This document shows, in pieces, positions 1,794 to 23,411 of a stretch of 23,812 nucleotides of DNA. Each line of letters opens with the position of its first letter. Position 1 is the first letter of the stretch. Where the stretch lies: assembly GCA_016839445.1 (NCBI GenBank), contig JAEOUG010000142.1, positions 1-23,812 on the forward strand, given 5' to 3'. Source of the DNA: Candidatus Thorarchaeota archaeon (GTDB lineage: Archaea > Asgardarchaeota > Thorarchaeia > Thorarchaeales > Thorarchaeaceae). The notes beneath the pieces are model-generated. The model was not told the DNA's origin and did not search any database. It saw only the letters and a program-made list of their open reading frames with translations. A program made the translations under genes and the position numbers.

Positions 1794-1817
1794 TATCAGG
1801 AAAGGGGTGATTAGAAG

Positions 1818-2519
1818 ATGGAAGCCTGGCTGAAGATCTTCGTGGTCATGATAATGCTCTCTGTGATCAGCTTCGTGGCCACATGGGTTCTCACAGACCC
1901 CTTCATGGGGCTAATCCTCCTCGCGGTCCTCCTAACTCTTCTAGTGCTCACTGTAGAACCGGCAACGGGAAAGGCGATGTCCCAGGTGACAGTCCCAATT
2001 GTCATCATGCTGTTTGTGATGCAGGTACTTCTGAACCCAGGATTCGTGTTTGACGTCTGGACGTTGGCGATCATAGGAATCCTGTTGTACTTCATGTTCA
2101 CCCTGTTCACTGGCGGGAGCAGCTTCATGGAGGGCGCCTTCATCGACGCCAAGATGTCCCTGAAACTCCTCCCAGCCTACGCAGCAGCCATCATCATCTC
2201 AATGGTAATGGATCGAACCAATCGGATGACTGTCTTTATCATGGCCGGGACTTCCCTCTTCCTGATGGGGATCTACTTCTCCTTCCTACGGGACTATGAC
2301 AAGTGGCCCGCCTACTCCCAGTATCAGTACAGTGACATCAGAGCAATCACGGACATCAACCCCAAGGGAAAAGTGAAGACTGGAGCAGAGATCTGGTGGG
2401 CGAGAACTGCAGGACCACCAATCAAGGCAGGAGAAGAGGTTGTGATTGTGACGATTTCTGGGCTCACCATGGTAGTAAGGCGTCCAGATGACATCACAGT
2501 CTCTGAGCAGGACCAGTAA
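1818..2519 (+). CDS. NfeD-family membrane protein (TM bundle plus C-terminal OB fold, no protease domain)
   Basis: C-terminal 'GKVKTGAEIWWART..PIKAGEEVVIVTISGLTMVVR' is the NfeD OB-fold pattern; adjacent to stomatin; GGTGA RBS. Confidence 0.85.
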   Translation: MEAWLKIFVVMIMLSVISFVATWVLTDPFMGLILLAVLLTLLVLTVEPATGKAMSQVTVPIVIMLFVMQVLLNPGFVFDVWTLAIIGILLYFMFTLFTGGSSFMEGAFIDAKMSLKLLPAYAAAIIISMVMDRTNRMTVFIMAGTSLFLMGIYFSFLRDYDKWPAYSQYQYSDIRAITDINPKGKVKTGAEIWWARTAGPPIKAGEEVVIVTISGLTMVVRRPDDITVSEQDQ

Positions 2520-2552
2520 CCCGCAGCAATGGGTCAGAGAAATCTGGCCCAG

Positions 2553-3365
2553 CTACTCCTTTTTCCCATAGCTCATCCAGAGACCCCAGATGAGAGAGAG
2601 CCCGAAGATGAAGCCTAGGATTGTCGTCAAACCCCACTCGATCTGGAAGATCTGAGGCAGATAGACCTCAGTCCGCGGAAATGAGGGGAAGGTCAGGTAT
2701 GCTACCATGTTCCACATGAAATGGAACGATATCGGCACCCACAATCTACGGCCTGTGAAGTAATACGCCATGGATAGCACTACTCCACCAAGAAACATGT
2801 TGAAAATGAAGAGCGCAAGAACATCAGGCCGAAATCCTGCAACCGACCACCAGCTGAAGTGAAGGAGCGAGAAGAAGAGCGAACTCACCATAATCGCAGT
2901 GCCGCGCGATGTAAGCGACTCAACTCGAGGAAGCACATAACCGCGGTGCACAATCTCCTCGAGAAGGGCTGTCGGTGCCGTAATGATAATCTCAGCGGCG
3001 ATGAGGTCACCCGTTATCTCCGCCGCTGGACGCACGTCTGCCCCAAACCCCCAGGCTATGGCAAGAACAAGAGCCGCGCCGAGAGTACCCCCAATTGCTC
3101 CGATGATGATTTGCGTGAGTGAACTTCCATCCCAAGCAACGCCCAGCTCCGAAACGCCTTCGCCGCCATCAAGTCTGACGAAGTACTCCGTGATGAAATA
3201 GAAGAGAAGGAAGGTGAGGAAGAAGGCAAGGGTTGCCGCCATCTCCAGCATCTCGCCTTGAAACAGCATCGAGACAATAGGAGACATGGCCACGACCATG
3301 AATATGAGAAGCATGAAGACGATTAGTCTCGAGGGGGTGGTTTCGCGAGTCACAGCCATTGGCAT
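2553..3365 (-). CDS. CPBP/Abi (CAAX protease II) intramembrane metalloprotease
   Basis: Motifs EEIVHRGY, FSLLH and HFMWN within a multi-TM protein. Confidence 0.92.
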   Translation of the reverse strand: MPMAVTRETTPSRLIVFMLLIFMVVAMSPIVSMLFQGEMLEMAATLAFFLTFLLFYFITEYFVRLDGGEGVSELGVAWDGSSLTQIIIGAIGGTLGAALVLAIAWGFGADVRPAAEITGDLIAAEIIITAPTALLEEIVHRGYVLPRVESLTSRGTAIMVSSLFFSLLHFSWWSVAGFRPDVLALFIFNMFLGGVVLSMAYYFTGRRLWVPISFHFMWNMVAYLTFPSFPRTEVYLPQIFQIEWGLTTILGFIFGLSLIWGLWMSYGKKE

Positions 3366-3541
3366 CGCCGCCTGAGTGTGCCTTCAACCTACCTAAAACT
3401 CATGCGGTCGCCTCAGCACTCCATTACATGCACGAATATTGTATATGTAGTGCGAAGTCATATAAGTCGGCAACTCCATTCGCCATTCCAAGTCTGGAAG
3501 CTCGTATGGCTGCGCCATGTTCAGCAAACGGAGGAGTATGT

Positions 3542-4651
3542 TTGCCCCAAACACGGAAGCTCTTGCTGGAATACGAAACAGAGGAAGTAGGGCGGCTCGC
3601 CAGGGATGATTCCTCTGAGAGGAAAGCCCTGATTAAGGCATTCGCTGATTCCTCCGATGTTGTAAGAGAGCGAGCACTGATTGCCTCCGTTGATGTGGCT
3701 GACCCAACTCTTGTTACTGATATCGTGAAGGCGCTAGAAGACAATGTTGCGGAGGTCAGAATAGCCGCCGCGCAGGCTCTCGCATTCTACAGCCAGCCGG
3801 CAACAATACCGATGATGTTGGACGGCCTGAAAGACCAGAACACCTGGGTTCGATCCCATTGTGCTGCAGGCCTCTCCAAGCTGCTTAGTGGCCCGATCTG
3901 GGCGAGAGTCCCTATCGAGAGCATCGATAAGATCCGGGAAGGATTTCCAGATATGACTGAAGAAGAAGTCGATGGTCTCCTAAGGTCAATCAAACTGCGG
4001 CCAGATGCTGTAGGAAGACTCAAGGACTGGCAAGCGAAGAACTATGAGATAGAGATTGATGTCTCCGCCCTTGTAGAAGAACTAGAGGGCAGGCCAATCC
4101 TGCTTTCTGGAGAAGCACCTTCTCCTTCGAAGCCAGGGAAACCTGACGAGGTGGAGGAAATACTCAGCGAACTACCAGACGAGATTAGAGCCACACTCCC
4201 GCCGGAAGATGTCAGTCGTCTTACTCCGGACTCTGCTAGGGAGCTCGTAAGGCAGCTGAAGGTTTCCACGCCGGCCAAAGAGAAGAAGAAGGCAGTCAAG
4301 GTCAAGAAGGTAAAGAAGGTCAAGAAGAAGAAGGCGGGACCATCGCACGAAGAGCTCATTGAGAGACTTCCGAAGGAGGTAAGGGAATCCGTGGGAGACA
4401 GCACACTTGCAGATCTCTCGACGGAGGAACTTGAGGCGCTTCTCTCGTCATCCAGCGAGGGTGCAGTGGAAGAAGAGGCCACACCGGGAACTCCGAGAAT
4501 GACCGAGCTTATGGAGAAGTTCGGCAAAGAAAAGGCAGAGGTCCTGGTCAACATCCCTGAGCACCTGCTTGAAGACATTCCCGAGGACCAAATCAAAGAG
4601 ATGGACATGGAGACCCTCAAGGGTCTCGCACAGGCTCTTGAGCCGAGATAG
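3542..4651 (+). CDS. HEAT (PBS-lyase-type) repeat protein with Lys-rich patch and C-terminal helical repeats
   Basis: HEAT repeats 'D..DVVRERA', 'LEDNVAEVRIAAAQAL', 'LKDQNTWVRSHCAAGL'. TTG at 3542 after GGAGGAG is preferred over the listed start at 3359, which overlaps the opposite gene. Confidence 0.8.
   Translation: MPQTRKLLLEYETEEVGRLARDDSSERKALIKAFADSSDVVRERALIASVDVADPTLVTDIVKALEDNVAEVRIAAAQALAFYSQPATIPMMLDGLKDQNTWVRSHCAAGLSKLLSGPIWARVPIESIDKIREGFPDMTEEEVDGLLRSIKLRPDAVGRLKDWQAKNYEIEIDVSALVEELEGRPILLSGEAPSPSKPGKPDEVEEILSELPDEIRATLPPEDVSRLTPDSARELVRQLKVSTPAKEKKKAVKVKKVKKVKKKKAGPSHEELIERLPKEVRESVGDSTLADLSTEELEALLSSSSEGAVEEEATPGTPRMTELMEKFGKEKAEVLVNIPEHLLEDIPEDQIKEMDMETLKGLAQALEPR
4277..4333 (+). 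repeat. Low-complexity Lys/Val tandem repeat (KEKKKAVKVKKVKKVKKKK)
   Basis: Near-tandem GTMAAGAAG units at the DNA level inside the HEAT gene. Confidence 0.8.
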
Positions 4652-4657
4652 GGTCTG

Positions 4658-5950
4658 CTACTCTGAGCCTCTGATGACAACCGCGAATTCTCCTGCAAGC
4701 CGTCCGTACCACTCTAGAAGATCTCGCATATTGTCAACATGCCTGTAGCTACCGTTGCCGTACTGAGCTATTGCCAGCATGAGCTCCTCGTCAATCTCAC
4801 TCCGCTCCCCAAGACCGATGCAGTAGATAACGAGCTTTCCTCGATCAGGGAACCGGTCCTTCAGGACCTTAAGTGGAGGCGGGCCTGAGGTCGTCATTCC
4901 GTCGGTAAGAAGAATCAACATCGTCGGCTTGTCAGGGTCTCCGAACTCCTCCATGATGTCTTTGGCCTTGTTCAACGCACTGCCCATGTCTGTCAGCGTG
5001 CCGCCTTCCTCAACTTTGTCAACAACATGGGTGCTGATAATCTGAAGACCCAGAGCCTTCTCACGTCCCGTACACTCCACAAAGGGTTGAACCTCACCTG
5101 ATTCGGAGTCGAGGAAGGTCATTTCGCTTACTTCCTTCTCGAACGTGATGACCCCTACCTTCTCCCCATATCCGCGGCCCACTTTCTCAGCAAGATACAG
5201 CAGCACAGCCATGGCAGCAGCCTCGGCCCTACTCACGTTCCTTCCCTCTTCGAAACGATTTAGGAACGCCTGGACCTCGGGATTGTCACCAGCCAGGTCC
5301 TTGAGCCCCTCTCTTGCATGAGCAATCTCCTGTACAGGAACGTCAGTTGTCTTCATGGATCCACTAGTGTCAATGCACAGAACCGCATTGAAAGGCGAAG
5401 CAACGCCCACAGTCTTGAACTGATAGCCCGTCTTCTCTCTCAAAGCTTCGAAAGCAAGTTTGGCGAAGCTCTTTCCCGATAGGAGTGGCTTCGTGTTGAG
5501 AATCTCTACCTTCACGTTGAGCTCGGGCCAGTGAAATGACATTCCTGGGTAGACGAGTCGTCCCCCGATTAGAGACTCCAGAGACTTGACTGACTCAGCC
5601 GCCCTTGAAACCAAATCCTCTGTGTTCGCATCCTCAGAGAGAGGCTTCAGCCCGAATTCGACGTACTCCAACGCGGTCATGTCTTCATCGAAAAGCGTCA
5701 CTTCGACTTCGTCCCCTTCCATCAACAGAGATGCTTCGAGGACGAGAGTGTCAATCACGATTTGGTCCTGTGAGACATCCTTGCTCTTCCGTATCTCTGC
5801 AGCCCCCCAGAAACTGCTCTGTGGGTCCTCGAAGATCACTATGGAGCCGATATCAGCCGCAATCTTCTCTACAACCTTGGGGTGAAGACTTACGAAGCCA
5901 CGAAGATCTCCGCCGTCAACAATCTCGAGAGTAAGCTTGGGGATGGTGAC
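4658..5950 (-). CDS. Cdc48/p97-N-domain-like + vWA protein with intact MIDAS
   Basis: vWA: 'AVLCIDTSGSM' (DxSxS at 5357-5371), 'GGTLTDMGSAL', 'LILLTDG', 'YCIGLG', 'LAIAQYGNGSY'. The N-terminal ~170 aa match Cdc48-N patterns: 'FVSLHPKVVEKIAADIGSIVIF', 'IVIDTLVLEASLLMEGDEVEV', 'GRLVYPG...KVEILNTKP'. The frame is open to 5950, 37 codons beyond the listed GTG at 5839; true start uncertain. Confidence 0.8.
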   Translation of the reverse strand, partial: VTIPKLTLEIVDGGDLRGFVSLHPKVVEKIAADIGSIVIFEDPQSSFWGAAEIRKSKDVSQDQIVIDTLVLEASLLMEGDEVEVTLFDEDMTALEYVEFGLKPLSEDANTEDLVSRAAESVKSLESLIGGRLVYPGMSFHWPELNVKVEILNTKPLLSGKSFAKLAFEALREKTGYQFKTVGVASPFNAVLCIDTSGSMKTTDVPVQEIAHAREGLKDLAGDNPEVQAFLNRFEEGRNVSRAEAAAMAVLLYLAEKVGRGYGEKVGVITFEKEVSEMTFLDSESGEVQPFVECTGREKALGLQIISTHVVDKVEEGGTLTDMGSALNKAKDIMEEFGDPDKPTMLILLTDGMTTSGPPPLKVLKDRFPDRGKLVIYCIGLGERSEIDEELMLAIAQYGNGSYRHVDNMRDLLEWYGRLAGEFAVVIRGSE

Positions 5951-5984
5951 TCATGCCTCCTTGCATCCTCCTCGTGACCATATG

Positions 5985-5991
5985 TTATAAA
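5985..5991 (-). promoter_or_regulatory. TATA-box-like element upstream of the Cdc48N-vWA gene
   Basis: TTTATAA on the minus strand about 30 nt upstream of the ATG at 5954; AAGGAGG lies at 5956-5962. Confidence 0.5.
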
Positions 5992-6007
5992 CAATTGTGG
6001 GGACGCA

Positions 6008-7501
6008 TCACGCAATTGCGGTCTCAAATGCGGAAACGAGCTCATCCGCAGACTTGGCGAGGTGGGAGTTGTCAGAGAGTGCCTTACTAAGAACGGCACC
6101 GACTTTCTGAGACGCGTGTTCGAGCGACTCGATCCGTACCGAGCCCTGAGCTCCAAGAAGAGCAACGCTGAGCAAGCCGCCAGCTCTTCTTCGAATCCAG
6201 ACATGCAAATCGCCTTCTGTCTTTGCAGACCTCAGTGTTACTAGGTATGAATCCTGGTACACACCGTTGAATCCCCCCTTTTCGACAGCCTCGATACTTG
6301 GCCATGTAGACTGAGGGGGAATCATGAAATCTAGAGATGCCATGTCCCACGCACCTCGGGATATCTCACGAAGAAGGAACTCCTCGAAGGCGGACTGGAC
6401 AGCATGAGATTTGTCGTGGCTGTAGATCTCTCTAGGAGGCAGTGATGTCTTCATCCTTGTCCTGAATGGCTTCTGTATGAGATGCAGCGCGTTCCCACCA
6501 AGAATCTTCTGCGCATCAACGAGGGTTCCCTGGAACTCCCTAGAGAGAAGGTAGGTAATCACATCTGCTGCTTGAACAGTGAGGAAACTGAAGTCCGTGC
6601 CGAACATGATGCGGTCAGACCACTTCCCTTTGGGGCCAAGCCGCTCATACGCAGACTCGAAGAGCGCAGGCACATCCAAATCGTGTAGGGATGAGGTCTC
6701 TGTGAGTATTGCAGGGTCCCTTAGTGCTTCAAAGAGCTTTGAATCACTTGGTGACATCCCGCAATGCGCGATAATGACTCGCAGGTTCCTAGCTGCTTCA
6801 CCGCACGATGGGTCGTTCAGTATTGAGTCGACCAGCGATCTTATCCTGTCAACTGTCCGGATGTTCCGTGTGTCGAAGATGATGGGCACAGAGAGTTCTG
6901 CCGCCCTCTTCACAACGCTCCTTGTTGGGCCGCTGTCAATCTCGTCAACGAAGAGCTGGGCGAGAGGGTGCAGCTTGAGACCTCTCAATCCAAGGTCCAG
7001 AATGGCCCTCTCCAGCTCTGCCACGGCGATGTCTTCGCCATCTCTTGGGTTGACTCTGCAGAAACCAATGAGTCGTGATGAGTGTGGCGCCCGACCAGTC
7101 CACCCAGCTATCTTGTCGTTTGATACGGCGAAAGAAGCAGATCTTGGACCTTCGGGTGCTGAATAATCATCAGTATACGGGAAAACTACTGTTCGGTCAA
7201 CGAGCCACCCGTGATTGGCTCTGCGCCAGCTATCCTTGGACTCGAATAGCTGGTTGAGAAGAGCAGGTGCTTCTACGCCAACTGGCCTGAAGAGAAGCCT
7301 GTCTTCCTCTGCCAGCTGCTCCGCTTGCTTCTGGACTTCAAACCAAAGCTGAGTGTAGAAATCGTAGGCACCCGATGGGGTGTTCCTATGTCCCTTCTCG
7401 CGACCCATATGATGGTGTGCATCCACGAGGTAGAGGCGAAACTCATCATTCTTCGATATCCCACGTTGGGGCAGGTCCTCTACGGCACGAACGACGAGCA
7501 T
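6008..7501 (-). CDS. Amidohydrolase-superfamily (Amidohydro_2-like) metallohydrolase with extra C-terminal domain
   Basis: Motifs VDAHHH, GLRGLKLHP, IIAHCG, RIMFGTDF, KILGGNA. ATG at 7501 is preferred over the listed start at 7582. Confidence 0.88.
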   Translation of the reverse strand: MLVVRAVEDLPQRGISKNDEFRLYLVDAHHHMGREKGHRNTPSGAYDFYTQLWFEVQKQAEQLAEEDRLLFRPVGVEAPALLNQLFESKDSWRRANHGWLVDRTVVFPYTDDYSAPEGPRSASFAVSNDKIAGWTGRAPHSSRLIGFCRVNPRDGEDIAVAELERAILDLGLRGLKLHPLAQLFVDEIDSGPTRSVVKRAAELSVPIIFDTRNIRTVDRIRSLVDSILNDPSCGEAARNLRVIIAHCGMSPSDSKLFEALRDPAILTETSSLHDLDVPALFESAYERLGPKGKWSDRIMFGTDFSFLTVQAADVITYLLSREFQGTLVDAQKILGGNALHLIQKPFRTRMKTSLPPREIYSHDKSHAVQSAFEEFLLREISRGAWDMASLDFMIPPQSTWPSIEAVEKGGFNGVYQDSYLVTLRSAKTEGDLHVWIRRRAGGLLSVALLGAQGSVRIESLEHASQKVGAVLSKALSDNSHLAKSADELVSAFETAIA

Positions 7502-7584
7502 CCACCATCTGCTCCTTGACCAGTGAGACAGCCTCGACGCGAGATAAATGATTGGTTGGTGGGGGACGTTCCCACTATGCATAT

Positions 7585-7600
7585 ATCAGCTCATGCTGAT
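7585..7600. promoter_or_regulatory. Perfect inverted repeat ATCAGC-N4-GCTGAT in the divergent intergenic region
   Basis: Seen directly, next to TATGCATATAT (7576-7586); regulatory role is inferred. Confidence 0.35.
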
Positions 7601-7631
7601 TTCTCGAATGCCGGATTGAGGTTGCCACGCG

Positions 7632-10292
7632 ATGATAGTTGTCGAAGACATTGATGCCAATGAGATTCATCGCTTTCTCGTTGTGGATTCTTCCATTCGA
7701 CTTGGCATCGTCAGAGCAGGCGCCTCTTTGCGCACTTTCGATCCGGATCGTGCACTAGCCTATCACTCCATGGTTGAGAACCAGATTCACGACTTCTCCA
7801 CCAAGTACTCAGGAGCCTTCAAGTTCATTCCCAGAAGAGCCTATGACTACTTGAAGGAACCAGAACTACTGAGTGATCTTCATTCTGGGGTGACGGATGT
7901 CTCCTGTTCGAGCTGGCTTGCGGACTTGTTTGTAGCCGCACCCCTTGTCCACTTGGGTGGAAGCCACTTGCCAGAGGGGCAGAAGGATGCTAATGCTCAA
8001 TCAGTGTACAGATGGAGCAATTTCCCCCCGCACAGCACAAGGTTCTATAATCTACAGGACATGAGGCTCGGCAGACGAACACCCACAGGATGGGGAGCAC
8101 TACTTGCAGCAGCCGACCTCAAGGACTCTCTGCACGGACCAAACCGCAACGACTTGCTGACTCACCTGAAAGCGAAAAGACCCGTATTCATTGAGCTTGA
8201 TGCAAGAGAGGATATCGAACCTCTTCTTGCGTGGATTGTGCTTCTGAAGGAGGCAGGTCTTGGAATTCCAAAACTAGCTCTCTCTGTTAGAGAACACAAG
8301 AGCTGGTCGAAGGAAATCACCCGCCTCATGGAGATCCCGAGCAGCAAGGTCCTGACGTCAGGGGCTACAATATCATCGCTGGCATCGCTCGTGAGGACTG
8401 CAAACAGCGAAGACGGCAAGGGATCATGGTCAAGAAGACTGATGTTCTCTTCCTCGTACCCGGAAACTCATTTGGGAGATAGCGTTTCAGAGGTCATCAG
8501 CTACTTCCTAAGCAGGAATATTGGCGCCGAGCCAAGCCAGGTTCAGAGGGTGCTGGGAGGCAACATGCTGTCTCTACTGCCTCCTCGACCTCCACACCTC
8601 ACCTACACTGAGAACACTAGCTCGGTGATGGCGGAAGAGAACCTTGGCAGGTCAGCTATGAACGAGCTCGTCAGAATCCTGCAGATCCTGCGTGCAAGGA
8701 AGGTCCTGACAGCCAACTCGGTGGACTTCATGGTTGAGGATGATGGGGGCAGCGTGTTTCTGGACGGTGCAATTCTGACAGCAATGGACCCGGCAACAGA
8801 GAGGGCTACGAGCATCTCGATTCTAGTGGACAGGAATGGCTCGGTCATGGTTTCAGGGTGGAGAAAGGCATTCACAGATACGCTGATTGAGAGAGACGCT
8901 CTTTTGCTTCAGACTCTCGCTCGCGCAAACGCCCGACTTGATGGTCCGATCTTTGGCTCGCCGGCCCACCTCACGCGATTCGATGAGGAACTCCTGAGAT
9001 GTCTTCAAGTGAAAAGCCCCAGGGAAATAATGTCTGCCCTTCATTTCGGCGTGGAAGTGGCCAAGACAGATCCTGGTGTTTACCTCATGTGTCCCGAAGA
9101 CATGGAGGCCCTTGAGGTCGAGTCAGGCCAGTATGTGCTCGCGTTGGATACAAGAACAGGACAATGGTTCCCGGCTGTGGCCAAAGCTCACAGCAGGTGT
9201 AATGAACGCAGTGTTGTAGTTTCTGAGAGCGATGCACAAGTGTTTGGTCTGAAAAACTCGTCTGTAGTCAATGTAGTCAGGTTCGACGGCGAGATTGCTG
9301 ATCTGACAAGTCTCGTTCTCGCATGCAGCTCTTCATCTCTTGGTAGTGGACAAGAGCTGTATTCGTACCTCCAACTGCATGGCGAAGAGATGCGTAGCCT
9401 GATTGATGGAAGACTAGTCAGTGTCGACTCGAGTCTCTTTGTGGACCGCAAAGGCCGCAGGGTCACGCTTAGAGTCGCCGGCACAACTCCGAGACTGGAA
9501 GCAGGTCATGTAGGAAGAGCCAGTTCATCGGACGTGAAGTTTCGACCGGTTCAGAGTTTCTCCGACATCAACGTGCTTCTCTGCCTTTCATCTGCAAAGG
9601 ATATGCTTTCAAGGGATGTCACTCTCGAAACTCTCAACGCCGCCAAGAGGGAACTCGCTGACTTCAGCACAGGTCTTCCGGAGCTGCAGAGCTTCATCGA
9701 GAGTCTTAGCAAGACTAGCTCACGAGCAGAGATTAGCGCTCTTGCGACCCTGTTAGCCTTCAACCTCTTCAACCACAATCAATCCGACGGGAGATTCGGT
9801 GTTGTCACGTTTGGGGAAGAGGTCGACAAGTTCAGCATCCAACATGGCGACCAGATCCAAACCTATATCGAGTTCTCCAAGGACATCCAGTCACAGGAAG
9901 TAGCTGCCGCCCTGACCTATTCGATTCTTGACAACCTGAGGAACCCTTCAGGTAGAGAGAACATGGCCTTGGCATACAGAGCTGCTGCCGAGTACCTCGA
10001 GGACTTCGGCTCGGACCGTCCCACTCTCGTCATCATGTTCTCGAATGGTATCGGCAACTATGATGAGGACCACCTGCCCTTTCTGGAGGCACTTGCCAAG
10101 CATGAGAGATGCCGCCTGGAACTCTTCATGATGGGGGCCGAACCGAAAACACGGCAGGCGATGAGACTGCTAAAGGGCATAAACGCAGATGTCATCAGTA
10201 CCAGGAGATTCTCGTCACTGAAGTTCGTAGGGCACCTACTTGATGCAATTGAGAGCTTGGTACCTACCTCTAGAGCCCGCTCCGAATCCTGA
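7632..10292 (+). CDS. Fusion protein: pseudo-amidohydrolase + Cdc48N-like + MIDAS-less vWA
   Basis: aa 1-~470 align with the 6008-7501 product (PHSTRF/PHSSRL, WSRRLMFSSSY/WSDRIMFGTDF, VLGGNM/ILGGNA). aa ~473-886 align with the 4658-5950 product (SRAEISALA/SRAEAAAMA, GVVTFGEEV/GVITFEKEV, FGSDRPTLVIMFSNG/FGDPDKPTMLILLTDG). Confidence 0.85.
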   Translation: MIVVEDIDANEIHRFLVVDSSIRLGIVRAGASLRTFDPDRALAYHSMVENQIHDFSTKYSGAFKFIPRRAYDYLKEPELLSDLHSGVTDVSCSSWLADLFVAAPLVHLGGSHLPEGQKDANAQSVYRWSNFPPHSTRFYNLQDMRLGRRTPTGWGALLAAADLKDSLHGPNRNDLLTHLKAKRPVFIELDAREDIEPLLAWIVLLKEAGLGIPKLALSVREHKSWSKEITRLMEIPSSKVLTSGATISSLASLVRTANSEDGKGSWSRRLMFSSSYPETHLGDSVSEVISYFLSRNIGAEPSQVQRVLGGNMLSLLPPRPPHLTYTENTSSVMAEENLGRSAMNELVRILQILRARKVLTANSVDFMVEDDGGSVFLDGAILTAMDPATERATSISILVDRNGSVMVSGWRKAFTDTLIERDALLLQTLARANARLDGPIFGSPAHLTRFDEELLRCLQVKSPREIMSALHFGVEVAKTDPGVYLMCPEDMEALEVESGQYVLALDTRTGQWFPAVAKAHSRCNERSVVVSESDAQVFGLKNSSVVNVVRFDGEIADLTSLVLACSSSSLGSGQELYSYLQLHGEEMRSLIDGRLVSVDSSLFVDRKGRRVTLRVAGTTPRLEAGHVGRASSSDVKFRPVQSFSDINVLLCLSSAKDMLSRDVTLETLNAAKRELADFSTGLPELQSFIESLSKTSSRAEISALATLLAFNLFNHNQSDGRFGVVTFGEEVDKFSIQHGDQIQTYIEFSKDIQSQEVAAALTYSILDNLRNPSGRENMALAYRAAAEYLEDFGSDRPTLVIMFSNGIGNYDEDHLPFLEALAKHERCRLELFMMGAEPKTRQAMRLLKGINADVISTRRFSSLKFVGHLLDAIESLVPTSRARSES

Positions 10293-10530
10293 ACCTCATC
10301 GATTCAATCTCCGAGACCTGCCCCTCGACTCTCGTCAGACGAATCTCAACTTGGTCAATGGTTTCCCTGAGAGAACTCAGCCGCATTGTGATCTCTTGTA
10401 TGCCGCCAGTATGATCATCGGTGGCCAGTTGCTGAATCTCGCTCCACATCTGCTCAAGCAGGCTCAGCCCTTTCTCTATCTCCTTCAGGGTCTCTGTAAG
10501 GCTCCTCGTTTCTTCTGCCATCACTATCAT
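10270..10530 (-). CDS. Small coiled-coil protein
   Basis: Two heptad-rich helices; start overlaps the upstream stop (ATG at 10530, alternative ATG at 10521); 3' end overlaps the convergent 886-aa gene by 23 nt. Confidence 0.7.
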   Translation of the reverse strand: MIVMAEETRSLTETLKEIEKGLSLLEQMWSEIQQLATDDHTGGIQEITMRLSSLRETIDQVEIRLTRVEGQVSEIESMRFRIRSGL

Positions 10531-11672
10531 CCCATGTTTTTGGTCAACCTCGACAGCCGCTCCTCCAACATCTTCAGACGGCTGGTCAGATCTTCGAGTC
10601 GTTCCTGCGTTTCGTTGAATCTGTGTACGATTTGAGCTGCCGCCTGATCGTTCGGCTGGCCCACACTACCAGATGACTTCTGACGGTTCTCGAGAGCTGC
10701 AAGCCGCCTCTGAATGTCATCTACAGGGATGGCTCTCAGTCGAGAGGCAAGACTCGCCACGTCGTCTTCCAACTTGGTGCGTGCTTTGCCACCTTCCTCC
10801 ACTCGTGGCTTCAATGGTTTGTTGGCCCTCTCAATGGTCACCTCAGGAGTAGCCTCGTCCATCTTTGTTTCCTTATCAAATGATGCCCAAAGAGGAGCCA
10901 GATAGTGGGCAATCAATCTGTCGAATTCTACATTCGAGGTGTAGGCAAAGGTCACCGTTTCCGCGGGACCATCCCACAAACAAAGAACGGCTGTTTCGGC
11001 ACTACTCAAGAGTAAAGAGGCAACAGGTGTACGCATGTCCTTGAAGACACGGAGGGCGGTCAGCCACCGAGCGAGCAAGGGGGCAAGATCTTCGAGTACA
11101 ATGACTTGGCCATCCTTCTCGATTCTGCCATCTCCAAGACTCTGTATCCACTTCGTGAACTTGGTCTTCTTGTCCGGGATTGCCAGGCTTAGAAAGCCCT
11201 CCAGTTTGCCTTCGATTCGGTCCTTCCTCATCTGTTCCAGATAGTCGAGCTGAATCTCTGTGCTGCTCGTGAATGCACCTTTTCCCAGTAGAATGGCAGC
11301 CGGTGCCACGATATCTCGTTTCGTAGTGGACACTCCTATAGCTACTGGTGTGTCCTGCCCCTTCCACGTTTCTGTTCCTACGATAGCGGCAATCCGAGAG
11401 TTCGCAGGTGGTGCTCCACCAATCATGAAGACGCCACGAGAGAATTGACTTCCCACCTTCTTGTCTGAGAGAAGCCGGACAAGACGGTCAGTGGGAATAG
11501 ACAAGTTGAGCCGAACATCTGATTCGTTCAAGACGGCGGCGTTCGAGCTTAGAAGGATGTTCTCCTCCAGCCATCCTGTTTCTAGGAACCCTGATGGAAC
11601 CCTCGTGACAATGAAGCTTGAAACGAGGCCCCGCCTTTCCAGGGTCCTAAGGGTGTTCTCAAGATTCGTCAC
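10527..11672 (-). CDS. Hypothetical alpha/beta protein with C-terminal coiled coil
   Basis: 381-aa ORF whose GTG abuts the upstream TAG; C-terminal heptads 'LEDDVASLASRL', 'RLEDLTSRLKMLEERLSRL'. Confidence 0.75.
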   Translation of the reverse strand: MTNLENTLRTLERRGLVSSFIVTRVPSGFLETGWLEENILLSSNAAVLNESDVRLNLSIPTDRLVRLLSDKKVGSQFSRGVFMIGGAPPANSRIAAIVGTETWKGQDTPVAIGVSTTKRDIVAPAAILLGKGAFTSSTEIQLDYLEQMRKDRIEGKLEGFLSLAIPDKKTKFTKWIQSLGDGRIEKDGQVIVLEDLAPLLARWLTALRVFKDMRTPVASLLLSSAETAVLCLWDGPAETVTFAYTSNVEFDRLIAHYLAPLWASFDKETKMDEATPEVTIERANKPLKPRVEEGGKARTKLEDDVASLASRLRAIPVDDIQRRLAALENRQKSSGSVGQPNDQAAAQIVHRFNETQERLEDLTSRLKMLEERLSRLTKNMG

Positions 11673-12797
11673 CTAACCACCTCGGGCCGTCCGATTGCTG
11701 AGGCTGTATACTGCATTACTTATGTCTTCGTTACTATCAATCTTTAGCAGGATGCCTTGTACTTGCTCAGCCATTGCCTCAAGGATATCGGATTGAACTC
11801 CAGTGCCACAGTACAAGAAGAAGAATGTCGTATCCGAGAGCCCCTGACCCCTTCTGATGGTCTTGACAGGATTTGGCCCTGAGCTAAATACTCCGCTTGA
11901 GAGGACGACCACTGCAATCGGCAATCTGTTCTCTGCCCGAATCCTCTCGGCGATTCGAACAGCATCAGATACTGCATCTCCCAGATTTGATGTGCTTCGC
12001 TTGCTGTGTGCAAGCAATTCCTCAACCCAGTTGCTATAGGCGGCAATCACAGAGGCGGACTCCAGAAATGAGACCTCACTTGGTTCGCCCGTTTCTGAGT
12101 CAAATGTAGAGAATGTGTGAACCTCTTCTGAAAAGCCCAGTCCGGAGAACTTGGCTCCGCCTCCAAGCCCACTGAAGGACTCGCCAAGCAAATCCAGGAA
12201 GTGCAAGTAGTTGGAGTATCTGGGTGCTGCCTCTGCTCCACCACAGTCCTCGATGTGAGAAGAACCCCCAAGTTCGCTGACTACAACAAGATTGGAGGGA
12301 GTGATTCCAGCCTGGGGAACCAAGCGGATGCTCTCAAGTTGCTTCCATAGCACGCGCCCTGGAGATCTTGGTCGAACCTCAACAACTGAGAAAGCCAGAT
12401 CGAGACGGGTCACCACAAGATTGTCGCCAGCAGCGAGAATGAGACCCTCGAAGTCTTCTCGGAGATCATTGACTCTCTTTGAAATGGCATCGGCCACCTT
12501 CATGTTGTCAAGCCCCCGTGTCGACCGCAAGCTCATCACTAATTGCGACATGTCATGAAGGGTATCTTCGTAGATGGAGAGGACCACTTCGTCATTCTCG
12601 TTGAGAGCAAGTCTGTCGAAGAGCCGAGAATCGATGACAACCGAACCTTCAGGAACGCGCGAGTCACTTCTGACATCAGCAAGGCATCGAAGGGGTCCTG
12701 CTTCGATTGCGCACACCTTGCGGTCAAGCTGCGAGTGTGAACTCGAAACGAAACAGATGCCCTTCTGATTGCGTCCCCGCCTTGCGTGCAGAACCAT
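11673..12797 (-). CDS. Cdc48N-like + degenerate vWA protein (paralogue of 4658-5950)
   Basis: EGSVVIDSRLFDRLALNENDEVVLSIYED vs QDQIVIDTLVLEASLLMEGDEVEVTLFDE; FSTFDSETGE vs MTFLDSESGE; VVLSSGVFSSGPNPVK vs ILLTDGMTTSGPPPLK. DxSxS is replaced by ELGGS. ATG at 12797 follows AGGTG. Confidence 0.8.
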   Translation of the reverse strand: MVLHARRGRNQKGICFVSSSHSQLDRKVCAIEAGPLRCLADVRSDSRVPEGSVVIDSRLFDRLALNENDEVVLSIYEDTLHDMSQLVMSLRSTRGLDNMKVADAISKRVNDLREDFEGLILAAGDNLVVTRLDLAFSVVEVRPRSPGRVLWKQLESIRLVPQAGITPSNLVVVSELGGSSHIEDCGGAEAAPRYSNYLHFLDLLGESFSGLGGGAKFSGLGFSEEVHTFSTFDSETGEPSEVSFLESASVIAAYSNWVEELLAHSKRSTSNLGDAVSDAVRIAERIRAENRLPIAVVVLSSGVFSSGPNPVKTIRRGQGLSDTTFFFLYCGTGVQSDILEAMAEQVQGILLKIDSNEDISNAVYSLSNRTARGG

Positions 12798-12807
12798 CTG
12801 TATACAC

Positions 12808-13920
12808 CTAGAAGATTCGTGTCTGATAGATGCCTGATGCCAGAGAGCGAGAACCATAGTAGACTTCGATTCGCATGGTTGCCTTGCCCTTTGTGTCTGT
12901 CATGGGCACTAGTTTGAGGCTCAGTGTCTGATTGGACTTCCCTCCAATCTCATGGCGCTCATTTGTGACTTCAGATACACCTTCATCCGTAACCAGAGAA
13001 GCGATTACTCGGATCCCAATGACTGTAGGACTTGGGTTTCGCACGTTGATTTGGTAGTTGAACGCCTTGCCGGAAACAATATTGTTCGGCACTTGACCGA
13101 GTTCCACTTCGAGGCCCATTGATGATGGACTAATCGGTCGCCCCTTCGGCCATCTCGGAATGTGACCGAGCTCGAGTAGTCGTGACAGTGATGTCTTCAG
13201 GTCTCGAAGATCCATCTTCAGAGATGCAGCGGCTTCTGCCATGTCGAATGAGCCATCATTCGCCTGATAGAAGGACAGGACCTTCCTATCTCCGATGATT
13301 AGATCTCCAACGTCCTCCAGAATCTCAAGAATTGCCTTCGGAAGCTCTCCCGCCTCCAGAAGAGTGTAGTACTTGCCTCCGTCGACGGCCCCAGCAATCT
13401 TTCTGAATGAGTCTTCAACCAATGGATTGCAGCCACACACGAAGATGAATACAGTAGAGCCGAAGTCCCTTCTTAGTTCTTTGACCTCCTCAATGGGGTC
13501 GTAGCCGCTTGGACAGCCGTTAGGGAAGTAGTCGTCAGATATCTGGTTATATTGCCGCCCATGCGGAGGAGCATCGCCAACTAGCAGAACTACCTTGTAG
13601 GAGTCAGCATCCCATGACAGCTTCACACGGGCATCGTGGAGGCCATCAGCTACCGCCTCTGGAGTGTCGCCACCTTCGGACGGCTTCAACTCTGCAATGC
13701 GCTTCTGTACTCTCTTCACTTTGTTGTCGAAGTCGGCAACCTGAGTTACGTATGTCTTGTCTTGTGGGGGGTGGTCCCTGTATGACACAACGCCAAAACG
13801 AATCTCTAGGTCACTTGTCCTCTTGGTCACCTGCTGAACTATGTCGAATAGACTGTCTTTGACTGCACGAATGTCATCCTTCATGGAACCAGTTGTGTCT
13901 ACGACAAATGCCACATCCAT
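12808..13920 (-). CDS. vWA (intact MIDAS) + winged helix + Ig-like/CARDB-like domain protein
   Basis: 'DVAFVVDTTGSM', 'GVVSYRDHPPQD', 'GGDTPEAVADGL', 'LSW', 'LVGDAPPHG'; wHTH 'FDMAEAAASLKMDLRDLKTSLSRLLELGHI'; beta-rich C-terminus 'FNYQINVRNPS...GKATMRIEVYY'. Start ATG 13920, or CTG 13935. Confidence 0.85.
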   Translation of the reverse strand: MDVAFVVDTTGSMKDDIRAVKDSLFDIVQQVTKRTSDLEIRFGVVSYRDHPPQDKTYVTQVADFDNKVKRVQKRIAELKPSEGGDTPEAVADGLHDARVKLSWDADSYKVVLLVGDAPPHGRQYNQISDDYFPNGCPSGYDPIEEVKELRRDFGSTVFIFVCGCNPLVEDSFRKIAGAVDGGKYYTLLEAGELPKAILEILEDVGDLIIGDRKVLSFYQANDGSFDMAEAAASLKMDLRDLKTSLSRLLELGHIPRWPKGRPISPSSMGLEVELGQVPNNIVSGKAFNYQINVRNPSPTVIGIRVIASLVTDEGVSEVTNERHEIGGKSNQTLSLKLVPMTDTKGKATMRIEVYYGSRSLASGIYQTRIF

Positions 13921-14037
13921 CTTCGTAAGGGGCAGTCCTATCCACTCCAGCTCCAGCAACCCCCCAGCGCAATTAAGCGTTTGCCGGTCGGCCGCAGAAC
14001 ACAGCACATTTTAGGATAGACTCTTCGAAGATGAAAC

Positions 14038-14427
14038 ATGGTCGACCTAAGTGACACGGATGTCTACCTTACGTTCCGCTTCGAGGATGGCACCGAACTC
14101 AAGGGAACCATCAATAGAATACACGCACCGCTGCTGGTGGAGGAGATCAAGTCCAGGCTTCCCATAGGTGGTAAGGCAACCTTCCTCAGAGGGGAGATGA
14201 AGATAACGCTCGATATCGGCAAAGGATACGCCAAGCCCACATCACAAGCGAAGAGGGGGGACATCGCCTACATGCCACTCGGAGACTCTCTGTGCATATA
14301 CCTGGAGGACATGACTACCTTCTCGAAGATCAACATTCTTGGCAGGGTGATATCAGATGATGCAGAACTGGATAGCATATCATCAGTTCGAAGAGGGAGC
14401 GGCGTCACGATTGAAGAGTCCAAGTAG
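14038..14427 (+). CDS. Cyclophilin-like fold protein (TM1367/DUF369-like)
   Basis: 'APLLVEEIKSRLPI', 'GDIAYMPLGDSLCIY', 'INILGRV'. Confidence 0.78.
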   Translation: MVDLSDTDVYLTFRFEDGTELKGTINRIHAPLLVEEIKSRLPIGGKATFLRGEMKITLDIGKGYAKPTSQAKRGDIAYMPLGDSLCIYLEDMTTFSKINILGRVISDDAELDSISSVRRGSGVTIEESK

Positions 14428-14438
14428 GAGAACAGAAC

Positions 14439-14990
14439 TCAGAGCCGCCGAAGATTCTTGAGTAGGTTCTCATTCGGATCTGACTCGATTTCAGCAGGGT
14501 CCACAACCAACCCGGCTTCGTGTGTTTCAATGAGTACCTCTATCCCAGAGTGCTCCACTTTCTTGATTCCTGTTCCTGACAGAGCCCTGATCCGGAGTTG
14601 CGTGGTGGCAAACTCAGTCTTGTCAGCGGTCTCGATTGTCTTCACATCCCTGCGCAGCTTTGTCCGGGCAATCCTCAGTTGCTCTTTCAACTCGGCAACT
14701 TGCACTTGCAGTGCCTTCCTCTGTTCGCTCTCATCACCGAGCTGGCCGCGCAGCTGATCGAACTCAGTCTTTGGGACCTGTTCTTTCGACCTATCAATCC
14801 AAGTGACAGTTGTGCCGTCAAACTTCCGAGTCGTCTCGACCTGATCAAGAGCTTTCAACACGGCAATAATATCATACACGCGCCTCTTCGGGCTATCCAA
14901 CGTGGCCGCGAGGTCCTCGCTTTTGATACCCTCTTCCCCACAATCCTGGAGAATCTTCAAAGCCTCCCGAGCAAGATTGACCAGCTTCAA
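14439..14990 (-). CDS. E2F/DP-family-like transcription factor (wHTH + coiled coil + marked-box-like segment)
   Basis: 'LAATLDSPKRRVYDIIAVLKAL...TVTWI' carries the RRxYD signature (14871-14888), followed by a coiled coil and 'FATTQLRIRALSGTGI'. Confidence 0.82.
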   Translation of the reverse strand: MKLVNLAREALKILQDCGEEGIKSEDLAATLDSPKRRVYDIIAVLKALDQVETTRKFDGTTVTWIDRSKEQVPKTEFDQLRGQLGDESEQRKALQVQVAELKEQLRIARTKLRRDVKTIETADKTEFATTQLRIRALSGTGIKKVEHSGIEVLIETHEAGLVVDPAEIESDPNENLLKNLRRL

Positions 14991-15282
14991 CTGTGCACCC
15001 CACTATGTGCTTGGCGGCGGGCTCCGAAGAGCACATTCCCATCTCTAATGATGCACCGCGCATTTAGGTGTTTGTATCATACTTCTAAAGACTTCTAGTA
15101 AATCTCTCCGATTTCGAAAAAACGACAAAGGACATGATTACGAATAATCGTAGCTCCGATTTATCGTGGTGAGGACCACATTTGCTCTCGTAGAACACTC
15201 AGTGACTAGACCAAAGATTTCTTAACTTGCCCTAGGGGTCCGACCTCACATCTCAACACACCCCCCGGGAGTGGAGACCACG

Positions 15283-23398: not shown

Positions 23399-23411
23399 TT
23401 GGCAGTATCGG

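Follow-up and report, generated by a model that had tools for sequence, protein, structure and literature searches.

DEPDC5/Iml1 (Sea1), a eukaryotic protein of nutrient signalling, is the large subunit of GATOR1/SEACIT, the GAP complex for RagA/Gtr1. The actinobacterial PafA-Dop system is a Pup ligase/depupylase pair, in which a GS/GCS-type ligase and an amide-cleaving enzyme share one conserved neighbourhood. The N-domains of Cdc48/p97/NSF, the vWA receptors Rpn10 and TFIIH p44, and roadblock/LC7 platforms (MglB, Ragulator LAMTOR2/3, the Rag C-terminal domains and Asgard Roadblock proteins) are also among the closest known systems. In addition, the best PDB sequence matches to the vWA halves studied here are 5a8j and 8s05, which are related to ArnB, a regulator of motility in Sulfolobus. 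The system considered below, for which these serve as points of comparison, is previously undescribed.

The window, that is, the whole stretch of 23,812 nt analysed, is a contig of a Thorarchaeota MAG, and the block under study contains four vWA domains within 11.5 kb. The ORFs of the block were found where the initial annotation had placed them, and its overall observation of a multi-protein block was confirmed. As it had stated, no obvious TM segment is present (the highest Kyte-Doolittle 19-residue mean is 1.42), and no nuclease, integrase or transposase was found in the block with Pfam. The composition is even, with a GC content of 0.48-0.54. Its count of two wHTH proteins was upheld only for g14; the second was not confirmed, because the N-terminus of g10 has a roadblock fold, and no family match was found in the middle of g12.

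The four vWA domains reside in g06 (4658..5839, minus strand), g12 (12808..13920, minus strand), g11 (11673..12797, minus strand) and the C-terminal half of g08 (7632..10292, plus strand), in agreement with the first count. The Pfam VWA model matches just three places in the whole 2.9-Mb assembly, so four such domains in 11.5 kb are far from chance. g06 matches VWA_2 (E 1.3e-10), and its intact MIDAS (D156/S158/S160, T282, D312) is invariant in 6/6 aligned orthologues. g12 matches VWA_4 (2.8e-13), VWA (2.6e-10) and Integrin_beta, and all 20 of its orthologues match the VWA_4/VWA families. g11 itself has no Pfam match; hhalign aligns it with g06 over the full length (99.8% probability), and nine of its 22 orthologues match VWA and seven CDC48_2. 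In g11 the MIDAS is degenerate and an N-terminal RGRNQxG motif is conserved (alignment A3). By paralogy, g06, g11 and the C-terminal half of g08 form one family, termed B, consisting of a Cdc48-N-like domain and a vWA domain. B is a rare protein family: its N-domain profile (A7), which matches g06, found 116 proteins among 1.84 billion representatives, and in those scanned the N-domain is followed by vWA in 38 of 49 and CDC48_N is matched in 2 of 49. The most conserved gene of the block is g06, with 79-91% identity over 65 Thor loci, 51% in locus L096 and 34-35% in the Jord and Frey lineages.

The divergent enzyme/pseudoenzyme pair was borne out as well. g07 (6008..7582, minus strand; start likely near 7504), termed A, is an Amidohydro_2 TIM-barrel metal hydrolase (53 bits against a Pfam cut-off of 26.4) with a C-terminal alpha/beta domain. 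It retains the catalytic ligands, and D53, H55, H56, H57, H204, H272 and D329 are invariant in 15/15 orthologues. The N-terminal half of g08 belongs to the same family, and g08 is thus a fusion, A'-B'. Its residues 1-~320 form a dead amidohydrolase lacking the HxH, H, H and D ligands, ~330-470 a middle part of alpha/beta and helical character, ~472-640 a Cdc48-N-like domain and ~644-879 a vWA domain with degenerate MIDAS. A-B fusions span three classes: besides Thor and f2 (L096), they occur in Frey (L113) and Jord (L118). None of the four retains the HxH/H/H/D ligands, which 8/8 free-standing A proteins keep. Substrates of the Amidohydro_2 family are mostly small molecules; therefore, A and the ligase L described below may have a purely metabolic role.

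In its two-domain architecture, B resembles the front half of DEPDC5: in both, a Cdc48/NSF-N-like domain is directly followed by a vWA/Sec23-trunk-type alpha/beta domain. With the g08 model, Foldseek ranks GATOR1/SEAC first (9o5e_H, E 2.7e-11; 9xzy, 'DEPDC5 dimer', 3.5e-11; further matches 9o5a_B, 9v0j_C, 7t3a_A, 7t3b_A, 8fw5_A, 8adl_W and 8ae6_W), and GATOR1/SEAC makes up 9 of the 44 among the matches listed, over 415-575 aligned columns; however, the match is only local, as TM-scores of 0.13-0.18 and an rmsd of about 16 A indicate, and p97/NSF N-D1, the other best two-domain match, is nearly as good (E 1.3e-10). B could accordingly be an archaeal homologue of DEPDC5/Iml1 over its N-terminal half (NTD + SABA), forming with g10 a platform that acts as GAP or GEF on small GTPases, Rag-like or other, with A and its dead copy as metabolite sensors. 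The genomic surroundings offer some likeness to GATOR1, since the archaeal proteins accompany roadblock/longin-type proteins and, in two lineages, small GTPases. Roadblock genes adjoin B in three contexts, including a ~130-aa ORF directly upstream of B in all six f9 loci with that flank and in f24 (L122). A Gtr1/RagA-like GTPase adjoins B in Jord L101, one of four scanned Jord/Frey g06-orthologue loci, and in f27 (L119) the distance between B and a Ras/Roc GTPase is 1 kb; these are the only two lineages with GTPase neighbours. Across the genome, small GTPases are matched 12 times and roadblock proteins 15 times. A preprint (10.1101/2020.10.19.343400) describes NPRL2-like proteins for most Thor MAGs; its available part makes no mention of a DEPDC5 homologue. 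Nevertheless, we consider this proto-GATOR1 reading unlikely. No sequence-level similarity between B and DEPDC5 was detected: Pfam IML1 has no match in the genome at E <= 1, nor does Pfam NPR2 match there; PDB profile searches with g06 and g11 return vWA chains only; the N-domain profile found no DEPDC5-length protein among the 1.84 billion representatives; and ESM Atlas returned vWA clusters only. By single-domain Z, the vWA part is closest to ordinary vWA domains (Rpn10, ANTXR2, TFIIH p44). Moreover, B has no counterpart to the SHEN, DEP and C-terminal domains found in DEPDC5, g06 keeps a full, working-looking MIDAS, and the amidohydrolase and carboxylate-amine ligase that are obligate partners in the Asgard system are missing from GATOR1. 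The Thor cluster is without a GTPase, and neither a small GTPase nor a Pfam-recognisable roadblock gene was found on the window contig.

The same structural matches bear on a second reading, in which the Cdc48-N-like and vWA domains would be Rpn10/Ufd1-type receptors feeding Cdc48/VAT or the proteasome. The N-domain of B in the g08 model aligns with p97/NSF N-domains in Foldseek, CDC48_2 and CDC48_N are among the family matches, and a PAC2 proteasome-assembly gene lies at 22586-23464 (Pfam). However, PAC2 is 8 kb away with unrelated genes between, many unrelated vWA domains score equally, and no ubiquitin-like, E1/E2, AAA+ or proteasome gene lies beside the system in the loci examined. The second domain of B is a vWA domain instead of the P-loop ATPase of Cdc48/p97/NSF, with no AAA+ module, and B lacks the UIM or zinc-finger parts of Rpn10 and TFIIH p44. 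We therefore regard this role as quite improbable, and the link to proteostasis or transcription control offered by the initial annotation found no direct support. The matches to 5a8j ('VWA2') and 8s05, both archaeal (E 1.6e-8 for g06 and 2.4e-5 for g11), are confined to the vWA domain's C-terminal half; they do not extend to the Cdc48-N-like domain, and the Thor locus has no FHA or kinase partners.

Phylogenetic profiling, which had been named as a check, was applied to 251 Asgard genomes of 28 families (A-like, E <= 1e-30). B was found in 137 genomes and A-like proteins in 133, and the two patterns match, both being present in the same 10 of 28 families, a tally that overstates the support because related genomes are not independent. 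Neither occurs in 97 genomes, which belong to 18 families, and neither was found in the high-quality Thor genomes G052, G062, G121 and G088. A and B are neighbours in Jord, Frey and two further lineages; A is immediately upstream of B in Frey L114, in L116 and L117 of Jord, and in f6 L129. In Frey L115 one ORF separates them, in f22 L121 the ligase L stands between them, in f27 L119 they are 6 kb apart, and in family f9 they are non-adjacent (13-53 kb). The fusions, the adjacency that recurs across distant Asgard classes and the agreement of the phyletic patterns thus uphold the proposed functional linkage of several genes.

L is a ~1150-aa YbdK/GCS2-like ligase beside A/B (GCS2, 25-39 bits against a Pfam cut-off of 21; PDB YbdK 1r8g, E 1.5e-7) with a ~800-aa extension. 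It converges on B in L114, L115, L116, L117 and L129. In Thor it lies just off the left edge of the window, two genes left of g01 in 4/5 genomes examined, with six genes between it and g06; in the present genome it is truncated by the end of the 6.5-kb contig that carries it (C187), and G254 has it 0.9 Mb from g06. A ~230-aa partner upstream of L is homologous among Thor, Frey and Jord. The conserved core consists of g07 and g06/g08 plus a ligase outside the window, and not of the 11.5-kb stretch that had been taken as the unit. By analogy with PafA-Dop, a carboxylate-amine ligase and an amide-cleaving enzyme in one neighbourhood would be the scheme we suggest for L and A; however, the putative Asgard eraser is a TIM-barrel Amidohydro_2 protein instead of a ligase paralogue, L has its extension, and no Pup-like tag gene was found in the Asgard system.

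Within Thorarchaeia, g01 to g17 are collinear in 66/66 loci. Gene order is thus kept, but the unrelated flanks g01-g04 and g15-g17 are equally collinear, so that synteny within Thor cannot show linkage. g15, which looks housekeeping, has 83-93% identity within the genus and 73-93% over all Thor loci. g07 adjoins g06 in 64 of the 66 loci, the other two being cut at g06. The tight minus-strand run g12-g11-g10-g09 was also confirmed: the g12 TAG is followed after 10 nt by the g11 ATG, the g11 TAG directly abuts the g10 GTG, and the g10 TGA and g09 ATG overlap by 4 nt (ATGA), so that g09 appears to be translationally coupled to g10. g08 and g09 are convergent with a 23-nt overlap. g12 retains the MIDAS DxTxS; a ~60-aa middle part separates this integrin-beta-like vWA from an Ig-like beta-sandwich at the C-terminus (weak Transglut_C/ASH matches in 7-8/20 orthologues); its full-length form occurs in families f1, f2 and f6 only. 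g10 (10527..11672, minus strand) has tandem roadblock-like domains at 1-132 and 146-268, followed by a disordered linker and, at the C-terminus, a coiled coil. g09 (10270..10530, minus strand; 86 aa) has coiled-coil family matches only, is fast-evolving and was detected by tblastn in 15/66 loci. g11 identity within the genus is 31-38%. g09-g11 are missing in 5 of 42 Thor loci spanning the site and partly missing in 4 more; they are dispensable and therefore not essential parts.

The HEAT, cyclophilin-like and E2F-like assignments all exceed Pfam cut-offs. g05 (3506..4651, plus strand; HEAT_2, E 9.7e-12; long acidic/lysine-rich tail) probably starts at ATG 3506 or TTG 3542 and not at the first TTG of the ORF (3359); orthologue alignments start at ORF residues ~54-62. 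It adjoins g06 in 65/66 Thor-order loci and in L096, and no HEAT gene was seen beside the system in other classes; g05 may belong to the system. g13 (14038..14427, plus strand; Cyclophil_like, E 1.7e-9, 38 bits against 27) stays beside g12 in L096, and g14 (14439..14990, minus strand; E2F_TDP, E 9.7e-9, 35.3 bits against 25.7; winged helix of E2F/DP type with a coiled-coil tail) stays beside g13 in L096 and L123, which represent the order's one other family. In f6 L130, the g13 and g14 profiles matched none of ten ORFs in the 12 kb fetched around g12. The membership of both is unproven, as was cautioned from the start. To the left lie g02 (SPFH/Band 7), g03 (NfeD) and g04 (Rce1-like CAAX protease), identified by Pfam at 963..3365; in Frey L113 and Jord L118 the g08-like fusion has a divergently oriented Band_7 gene next to it, and g02-g04 may anchor the system at the membrane.

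It could be argued that only g06-g07-g08 form a functional unit, and that HEAT, g09-g12, the cyclophilin-like and the E2F-like genes are unrelated neighbours in a frozen order. The collinearity of the loci extends to g15 and SPFH/NfeD, some genera lost g09-g11 without other change, f6 has g12 on a different contig than A-B-L, and next to A-B in Jord, Frey, f22 and f27 no HEAT, g12, g13 or g14 gene was observed. We find this doubtful, however, as g11 is a g06 paralogue apparently coupled in translation to g12, g10 and g09, the roadblock-B adjacency independently recurs in f9 and f24, four of the genome's few vWA domains are clustered, and L096 keeps g04-g08 and g12-g14 intact although SPFH/NfeD and g15 have moved away. 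An anti-virus defence or other conflict system is highly implausible. vWA, HEAT and coiled-coil proteins are known in some defence systems, and the evolution of g09-g11 is very rapid (within one genus, 24-39% identity vs 87-91% for g06); yet PADLOC gave only weak HEAT-ARM_XIII (E 1.1e-5) and Csa3-like wHTH (E 7.6e-4) matches over 10 proteins, the block carries no mobile-element or nuclease gene, its composition is even, and its position is fixed and vertically inherited in 66/66 loci. The block is thus neither a defence nor a mobile island. The initial annotation is supported in seeing a resident set of soluble-protein genes, several of them linked, but not in the extent and role that it assigned.

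The reading we prefer centres on B, which is constantly accompanied by A and usually also by L and its ~230-aa partner. The analysis establishes what the domains are, which genes are paralogous, which copies have lost catalytic or MIDAS residues, and which genes are fused, adjacent or co-occurring; a physical assembly, its chemistry, its target and a GTPase link are what we infer. B would hold a target protein or peptide, with the MIDAS metal on an acidic group and the Cdc48-N-like domain on the peptide or fold. L would put an amide bond (isopeptide or gamma-glutamyl-type) on the target and A would take it off, while the dead copies (g08 A'-B' and g11 B') would pair with the live g07 and g06 in a scaffolding or regulatory role. 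The pair g10/g09, with its tandem roadblock domains and coiled coils, might let a small GTPase switch dock, g12 (vWA + Ig) and HEAT g05 might be further Thor-specific scaffold subunits, and SPFH/NfeD may position the assembly at the membrane. The linkage evidence that informs this reading comes from outside the class Thorarchaeia. With slightly less than even confidence, we suggest that an Asgard-specific multi-protein system, built on the hub protein B with A and L, is represented by this cluster in a much-expanded Thorarchaeial form.

The window corresponds to the entire contig C116 (23.8 kb) of a 2.9-Mb Thorarchaeota MAG that is 89.8% complete. According to the gene map based on the ORF listing and Pfam scans, it opens with g01, to which no family is given, g02 (SPFH), g03 (NfeD) and g04 (an Rce1-like CAAX protease), followed by the HEAT gene g05 at 3506/3542-4651 on the plus strand. 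On the minus strand, g12 (12808-13920), g11 (374 aa; 11673-12797), g10 (381 aa; 10527-11672) and g09 (an 86-aa coiled coil; 10270-10530) form a tightly packed run, in which the junctions are a 10-nt gap, an abutting TAG/GTG and a 4-nt ATGA overlap, in line with the initial annotation. The coding ends of g09 and the convergent g08 overlap by 23 nt (10270-10292). Farther right lie the cyclophilin-like gene g13 (14038-14427, plus strand), g14 (14439-14990, minus strand) and g15 (15271-16614), which encodes 447 aa with a weak CobW/HypB-type P-loop match; PAC2, TatD and the PaaK-like ligase g17 are found beyond g15. The absence of obvious transmembrane segments was borne out by Kyte-Doolittle means of no more than 1.42 in every 19-residue window, and that of defence signs by PADLOC, which returned two weak generic hits and nothing else. 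Among the two winged-helix proteins that had been proposed, only g14 could be recovered, through an E2F_TDP (PF02319) match of 35.3 bits (cut-off 25.7) at residues 3-65; a second one was not found. The NCBIfam scan of g05-g14 gave nothing useful. A sequencing-run search with 4658-14007 listed 19 DNA-type runs from six studies and no RNA run; therefore, it says nothing on expression.

We assigned vWA domains by a family profile match (PF00092 clan) together with the MIDAS motif DxSxS ... T ... D. The g06 protein (4658-5839, minus strand) matches VWA_2 (E 1.3e-10) with invariant D156, S158, S160, T282 and D312, and g12 matches VWA at 41 bits (cut-off 23.8) with invariant D8, T10, S12 and D116, so that the MIDAS is intact in both. 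Although g11 on its own matches no Pfam family, hhalign (99.8%, E 1.9e-27) identifies it as a paralogue of g06 over its full length, and the C-terminal half of g08 (886 aa; 7632-10292, plus strand), at residues 503-841, is a third paralogue of the same family (hhalign 99.6%). Both thus have the vWA fold, and an intact MIDAS was found in neither: the three positions read EVGAAS, PSNPG and FSSG in the g11 family, and CLSSAKD and FSNG occur in the g08 C-terminus. The claim of four vWA domains within 11.5 kb is therefore upheld, and since the Pfam VWA model has no more than three match sites in the whole assembly, their clustering is not due to chance. Although the g11 family evolves fast, its N-terminus keeps a motif L-x-A-x-RGRNQ-x-G, in which G8, Q11 and G13 are invariant and R9 occurs in at least 90% of the 22 sequences; an arginine-finger-like role for it is only a guess.

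The domain ahead of the vWA in g06, g11 and g08 appears to be Cdc48-N-like. A CDC48_2 match appears in seven of the 22 g11 orthologues (best E 8.7e-4), CDC48_N appears in two of 49 distant family members (23.8 and 28.5 bits, below the gathering score of 35.1), and in Foldseek alignments the region pairs with N-D1 of p97 and NSF. Searched against 1.84 billion representatives, the profile of this N-domain (alignment A7) matched only 116 proteins at E <= 1e-3, and in 38 of the 49 Pfam-scanned members of the N-domain family a vWA follows; the g06-type protein, hereafter B, thus belongs to a rare and coherent two-domain family. An ESM Atlas search with g06 returned vWA clusters only. Two of the N-domain hits, P0104 and P0112, are giant proteins of 4878 and 6265 aa, with six and nine repeats, respectively, that match the first half of the profile.

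The partner of B is g07 (6008-7582, minus strand), hereafter A, which was assigned to Amidohydro_2 (PF04909) by a score above the cut-off (53 bits against 26.4) and by the metal ligands HxH, H, H and D; the corresponding H55, H57, H204, H272 and D329 are invariant in 15 of 15 sequences. Among 251 Asgard genomes, B is present in 137 and A (g07-like, E <= 1e-30) in 133, and the 10 families with B, out of 28, are also those with A. Given as B and A, the counts are 54 and 50 of 59 genomes in the main Thorarchaeial family (f1), 1 of 1 each in the second family of that order (f2) and in families f6 and f28, 5 of 5 each in f7, 50 and 51 of 54 in f9, 6 of 6 each in f19, 10 of 16 each in f22, 4 and 2 of 5 in f24, and 4 and 5 of 5 in f27. 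The remaining 18 families, with 97 genomes, yielded neither, and four good Thorarchaeial genomes (91-99% complete) also lack both. The phylogenetic profiling called for by the initial annotation thus yields a pattern rather than a statistic, because related genomes are not independent.

The loci anchored on g06 number 75, of which 65 are from Thorarchaeia, one (L096) from the second family of the order and nine from Jord- or Freyarchaeia. All 66 Thorarchaeial-order loci are collinear with zero order violations, but the unrelated flanks g01-g04 and g15-g17 are equally so; conserved order within the class therefore reflects inheritance, and we rejected it as evidence of linkage. One Thorarchaeial locus, L070, is the sole one without g08-g15 in the 10 kb upstream of g07, through a rearrangement or because that half of the block was lost. 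In another (L082, on a 916-kb contig), the g12 sequence is spread over three frames and those of g15 and g02 over two frames each, which look like indel errors of a long-read assembly rather than true pseudogenes. The g15 protein keeps 73-93% identity across Thorarchaeia, and the distance of its gene from g14 is 5 kb greater in genome G025, where four other genes intervene; g15 thus probably lies outside the system.

The informative comparison comes from other classes, for which neighbourhoods from seven more families were annotated with profiles built in this analysis. B is directly preceded by A in Freyarchaeia (L114), Jordarchaeia (L116 and L117) and f6 (L129), and the two are separated by one ORF in a further Freyarchaeial locus (L115) and by 6 kb in f27 (L119). 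Moreover, g08 and its Thorarchaeial counterparts, including that of L096, are fusions of an A-like N-terminal half to a B-like C-terminal half, and such fusions also occur in Freyarchaeia (L113, 893 aa) and Jordarchaeia (L118, 848 aa). The catalytic ligands HxH, H, H and D are gone in all four fusions examined, the N-terminal half of g08 included, and are intact in all eight free-standing A proteins, from five families. The conservation of a dead A fused to a MIDAS-less B in three classes, beside live copies of each, argues strongly, on Rosetta-stone grounds, for a joint function of A and B.

The genes between g12 and g08 behave differently. Identity within one GTDB genus is 87-91% for g06, 83-89% for g15, 68-73% for g12, 59-62% for g07 and 44-55% for g08, and drops to 31-37% for g11, 24-30% for g10 and 28-39% for g09; these low values (24-39%, against 87-91% for g06) suggest that the accessory subunits g09-g11 are under relaxed or diversifying selection. 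Their composition was counted over the 42 loci that span g12 to g08: g11 and g10 are both present in 32, g10 alone in two and a g11-like piece alone in two, and in five there is nothing between, g12 lying 31-68 nt from g08. In L096, a divergent 463-aa coiled-coil protein, which matches g10 in the coiled coil only (E 0.0016), takes the place of g10 and g11.

Outside the window, B has another recurrent neighbour. A protein of 1144-1399 aa lies directly after B on the opposite strand in L114, L115, L116, L117 and L129, and a homologue of 988 aa sits between A and B in f22 (L121). Its N-terminal region matches YbdK/GCS2 (PF04107) at 24.8-39.1 bits (cut-off 21) in six of six proteins scanned, over a span of only about 50 residues, and phmmer aligns residues 157-344 with YbdK of PDB entry 1r8g (E 1.5e-7); an ESM Atlas search returned GCS2 clusters only. 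We therefore take this neighbour of about 1150 aa as a predicted YbdK/GCS2-type carboxylate-amine ligase. Thorarchaeia carry it as well: in four of five genomes examined it is found left of g01 at a distance of two genes, and in the fifth it is 0.9 Mb off. In the source genome, the first 341 ligase residues lie at the cut end of a 6.5-kb contig (C187) whose remaining genes match the Thorarchaeial flank, so the window very probably breaks off just short of the ligase. A protein of about 220-260 aa directly upstream of the ligase is homologous in Thor-, Frey- and Jordarchaeia: a BLAST comparison of the two upstream neighbours of the Jordarchaeial ligase with Thorarchaeial flanks found nothing at 1e-5, and phmmer then tied the Jordarchaeial protein of about 230 aa to the Thorarchaeial flank through the Freyarchaeial one. 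In Thorarchaeia, the upstream flank of the ligase (L125:6884-11310 and equivalents) also holds oligopeptide/dipeptide ABC transporter genes, namely two ATPases with oligo_HPY domains and an OppC-type permease; between g01 and the ligase is a gene for a DUF92 membrane protein.

Roadblock or roadblock-like proteins adjoin B in three contexts. The f9 B proteins (about 720 aa) have an additional N-terminal barrel (a Molydop_binding match), and a roadblock gene of about 130 aa is directly upstream of B in all six f9 loci that include that flank and likewise in f24; both proteins scanned gave Robl_LC7 matches, and phmmer tied the others to them (E <= 1e-46). The third context is the g10-g11 pair of Thorarchaeia, where g10 appears to combine a tandem roadblock-like part with a coiled coil. 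No Robl_LC7 (PF03259) match was found among 20 g10 orthologues, and a profile search of the PDB with g10 gave coiled-coil entries only. Complex prediction for g11 with g10 residues 1-275 scored 0.00 against a mark of 0.32, which is evidence neither way. A Gtr1/RagA-like GTPase gene is divergent from the g06 orthologue in Jordarchaeial L101 (one of the four Jord-/Freyarchaeial g06-orthologue loci scanned), and L119 has a Ras/Roc GTPase gene at a distance of 1 kb from B. Contig C116 has no small GTPase and no Pfam-recognisable roadblock gene; 12 and 15 matches, respectively, were counted in the rest of the genome. A Band 7/SPFH gene is divergent from the g08-like fusion in Frey- and Jordarchaeia, which is paralleled in the window by SPFH-NfeD three genes from g06.

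The conserved f9 (L106-L112) and f24 (L122) runs comprise an NAD(P)HX repair enzyme, a protein of about 280 aa with a gelsolin-like sequence pattern, recognised by eye, the roadblock, B, and an ACT plus AbrB-like protein; the L106 run continues with an actin homologue (E 1.4e-48) and a CHAT-domain protein. The gelsolin-like-pattern protein is also found two genes from A-B in L114 (E 8.5e-40). 'Sec23/24-like' proteins have reportedly been noted in Thorarchaeota. The source genome has a second vWA-type and roadblock neighbourhood (C180:773-5637), where its sole Pfam Sec23_trunk match (a 542-aa ORF, E 6.9e-9) shares one small stretch with four roadblock/LC7 genes; we therefore rejected the idea that the cluster is the Sec23_trunk-matching gene of this genome.

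Taken together, the candidate module of the initial annotation is real and, in the literature searched, undescribed, but its borders had been drawn by eye, and the conserved core differs from them. The core consists of A (g07), B (g06), the dead fusion g08 and the off-window YbdK-like ligase with its small partner; g11, g10/g09 and g12 are Thorarchaeial additions, and the HEAT protein g05 probably is as well. We place g13 and g14 in neither set. As a tentative but plausible reading of these sequences, the cluster may be a write/erase amide-modification machine, which B-type adaptors would organise with the pseudo-subunits and a roadblock platform.

The trunk of Sec23 has a vWA-type fold. In a bolder reading, that of a proto-GATOR1, Asgard B would be the archaeal forerunner of the NTD-SABA module of DEPDC5/Iml1, the large GATOR1/SEACIT subunit. 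Under that proposal, B and tandem-roadblock subunits would form a nutrient-linked regulator of Rag-like GTPases, into which the amidohydrolase/pseudo-amidohydrolase pair and the carboxylate-amine ligase would feed a metabolite or modification input. In a Foldseek search of the PDB with the g08 model, GATOR1/SEAC entries came out on top (9o5e_H, E 2.7e-11; 9xzy, 'DEPDC5 dimer', 3.5e-11) and made up nine of the 44 matches listed, with 415-575 aligned columns; that the matched chain is DEPDC5/Iml1 was inferred from entry titles and chain lengths, except for 9xzy. However, N-D1 structures of p97, NSF and SPATA5 are interleaved with them from E 1.3e-10, p97 being nearly tied, and the match is local, with TM-scores of 0.13-0.16 for GATOR1/SEAC and up to 0.18 overall. 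According to a review (PMC8534245), the NTD of DEPDC5 is similar to the N-domain of Sec18/NSF and SABA to a Sec23 domain, and no other protein combines the two. B would therefore share with the front half of DEPDC5 both the kinds of domain and their order, a Cdc48/NSF-N-like domain and then a vWA/Sec23-trunk-type domain; however, it ends right after the vWA and lacks the SHEN, DEP and C-terminal domains, and the normal MIDAS of g06 counts against homology. Sequence methods gave no link between the B family and DEPDC5/Iml1: Pfam IML1 (PF12257) had no match at E <= 1 in the whole genome, scans of the cluster proteins and relatives gave no IML1 match and those of the window proteins no DEP match. 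For the partners NPRL2 and NPRL3, Pfam NPR2 had no match in the genome. A 2020 preprint (10.1101/2020.10.19.343400) reports NPRL2-like proteins in most Thorarchaeial MAGs, and a 2025 paper ties Asgard longins to GAP longins; the accessible portions of both leave DEPDC5 unmentioned. On this balance, we consider the proto-GATOR1 reading unlikely.

Literature searches on Asgard archaea with GATOR1, DEPDC5/Iml1, vWA plus Cdc48 or the ligase-vWA-amidohydrolase combination brought up nothing that describes the system, and a term search in the main text of a 2026 Asgard structural-modelling paper was likewise negative; the supplements of these papers might list some of the families. Eukaryotes have no closer known relatives than Asgard archaea, and Asgard-only systems are candidate raw material of eukaryotic cell biology. 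In the present system, a layout so far given as exclusive to DEPDC5 (PMC8534245) is joined with roadblock proteins, an enzyme/pseudoenzyme pair is kept dead and fused across three Asgard classes, and a giant predicted amide ligase is included. If the parts assemble, they would make up either a new machine for modifying proteins or metabolites or an early relative of GATOR1, the nutrient-signalling complex.
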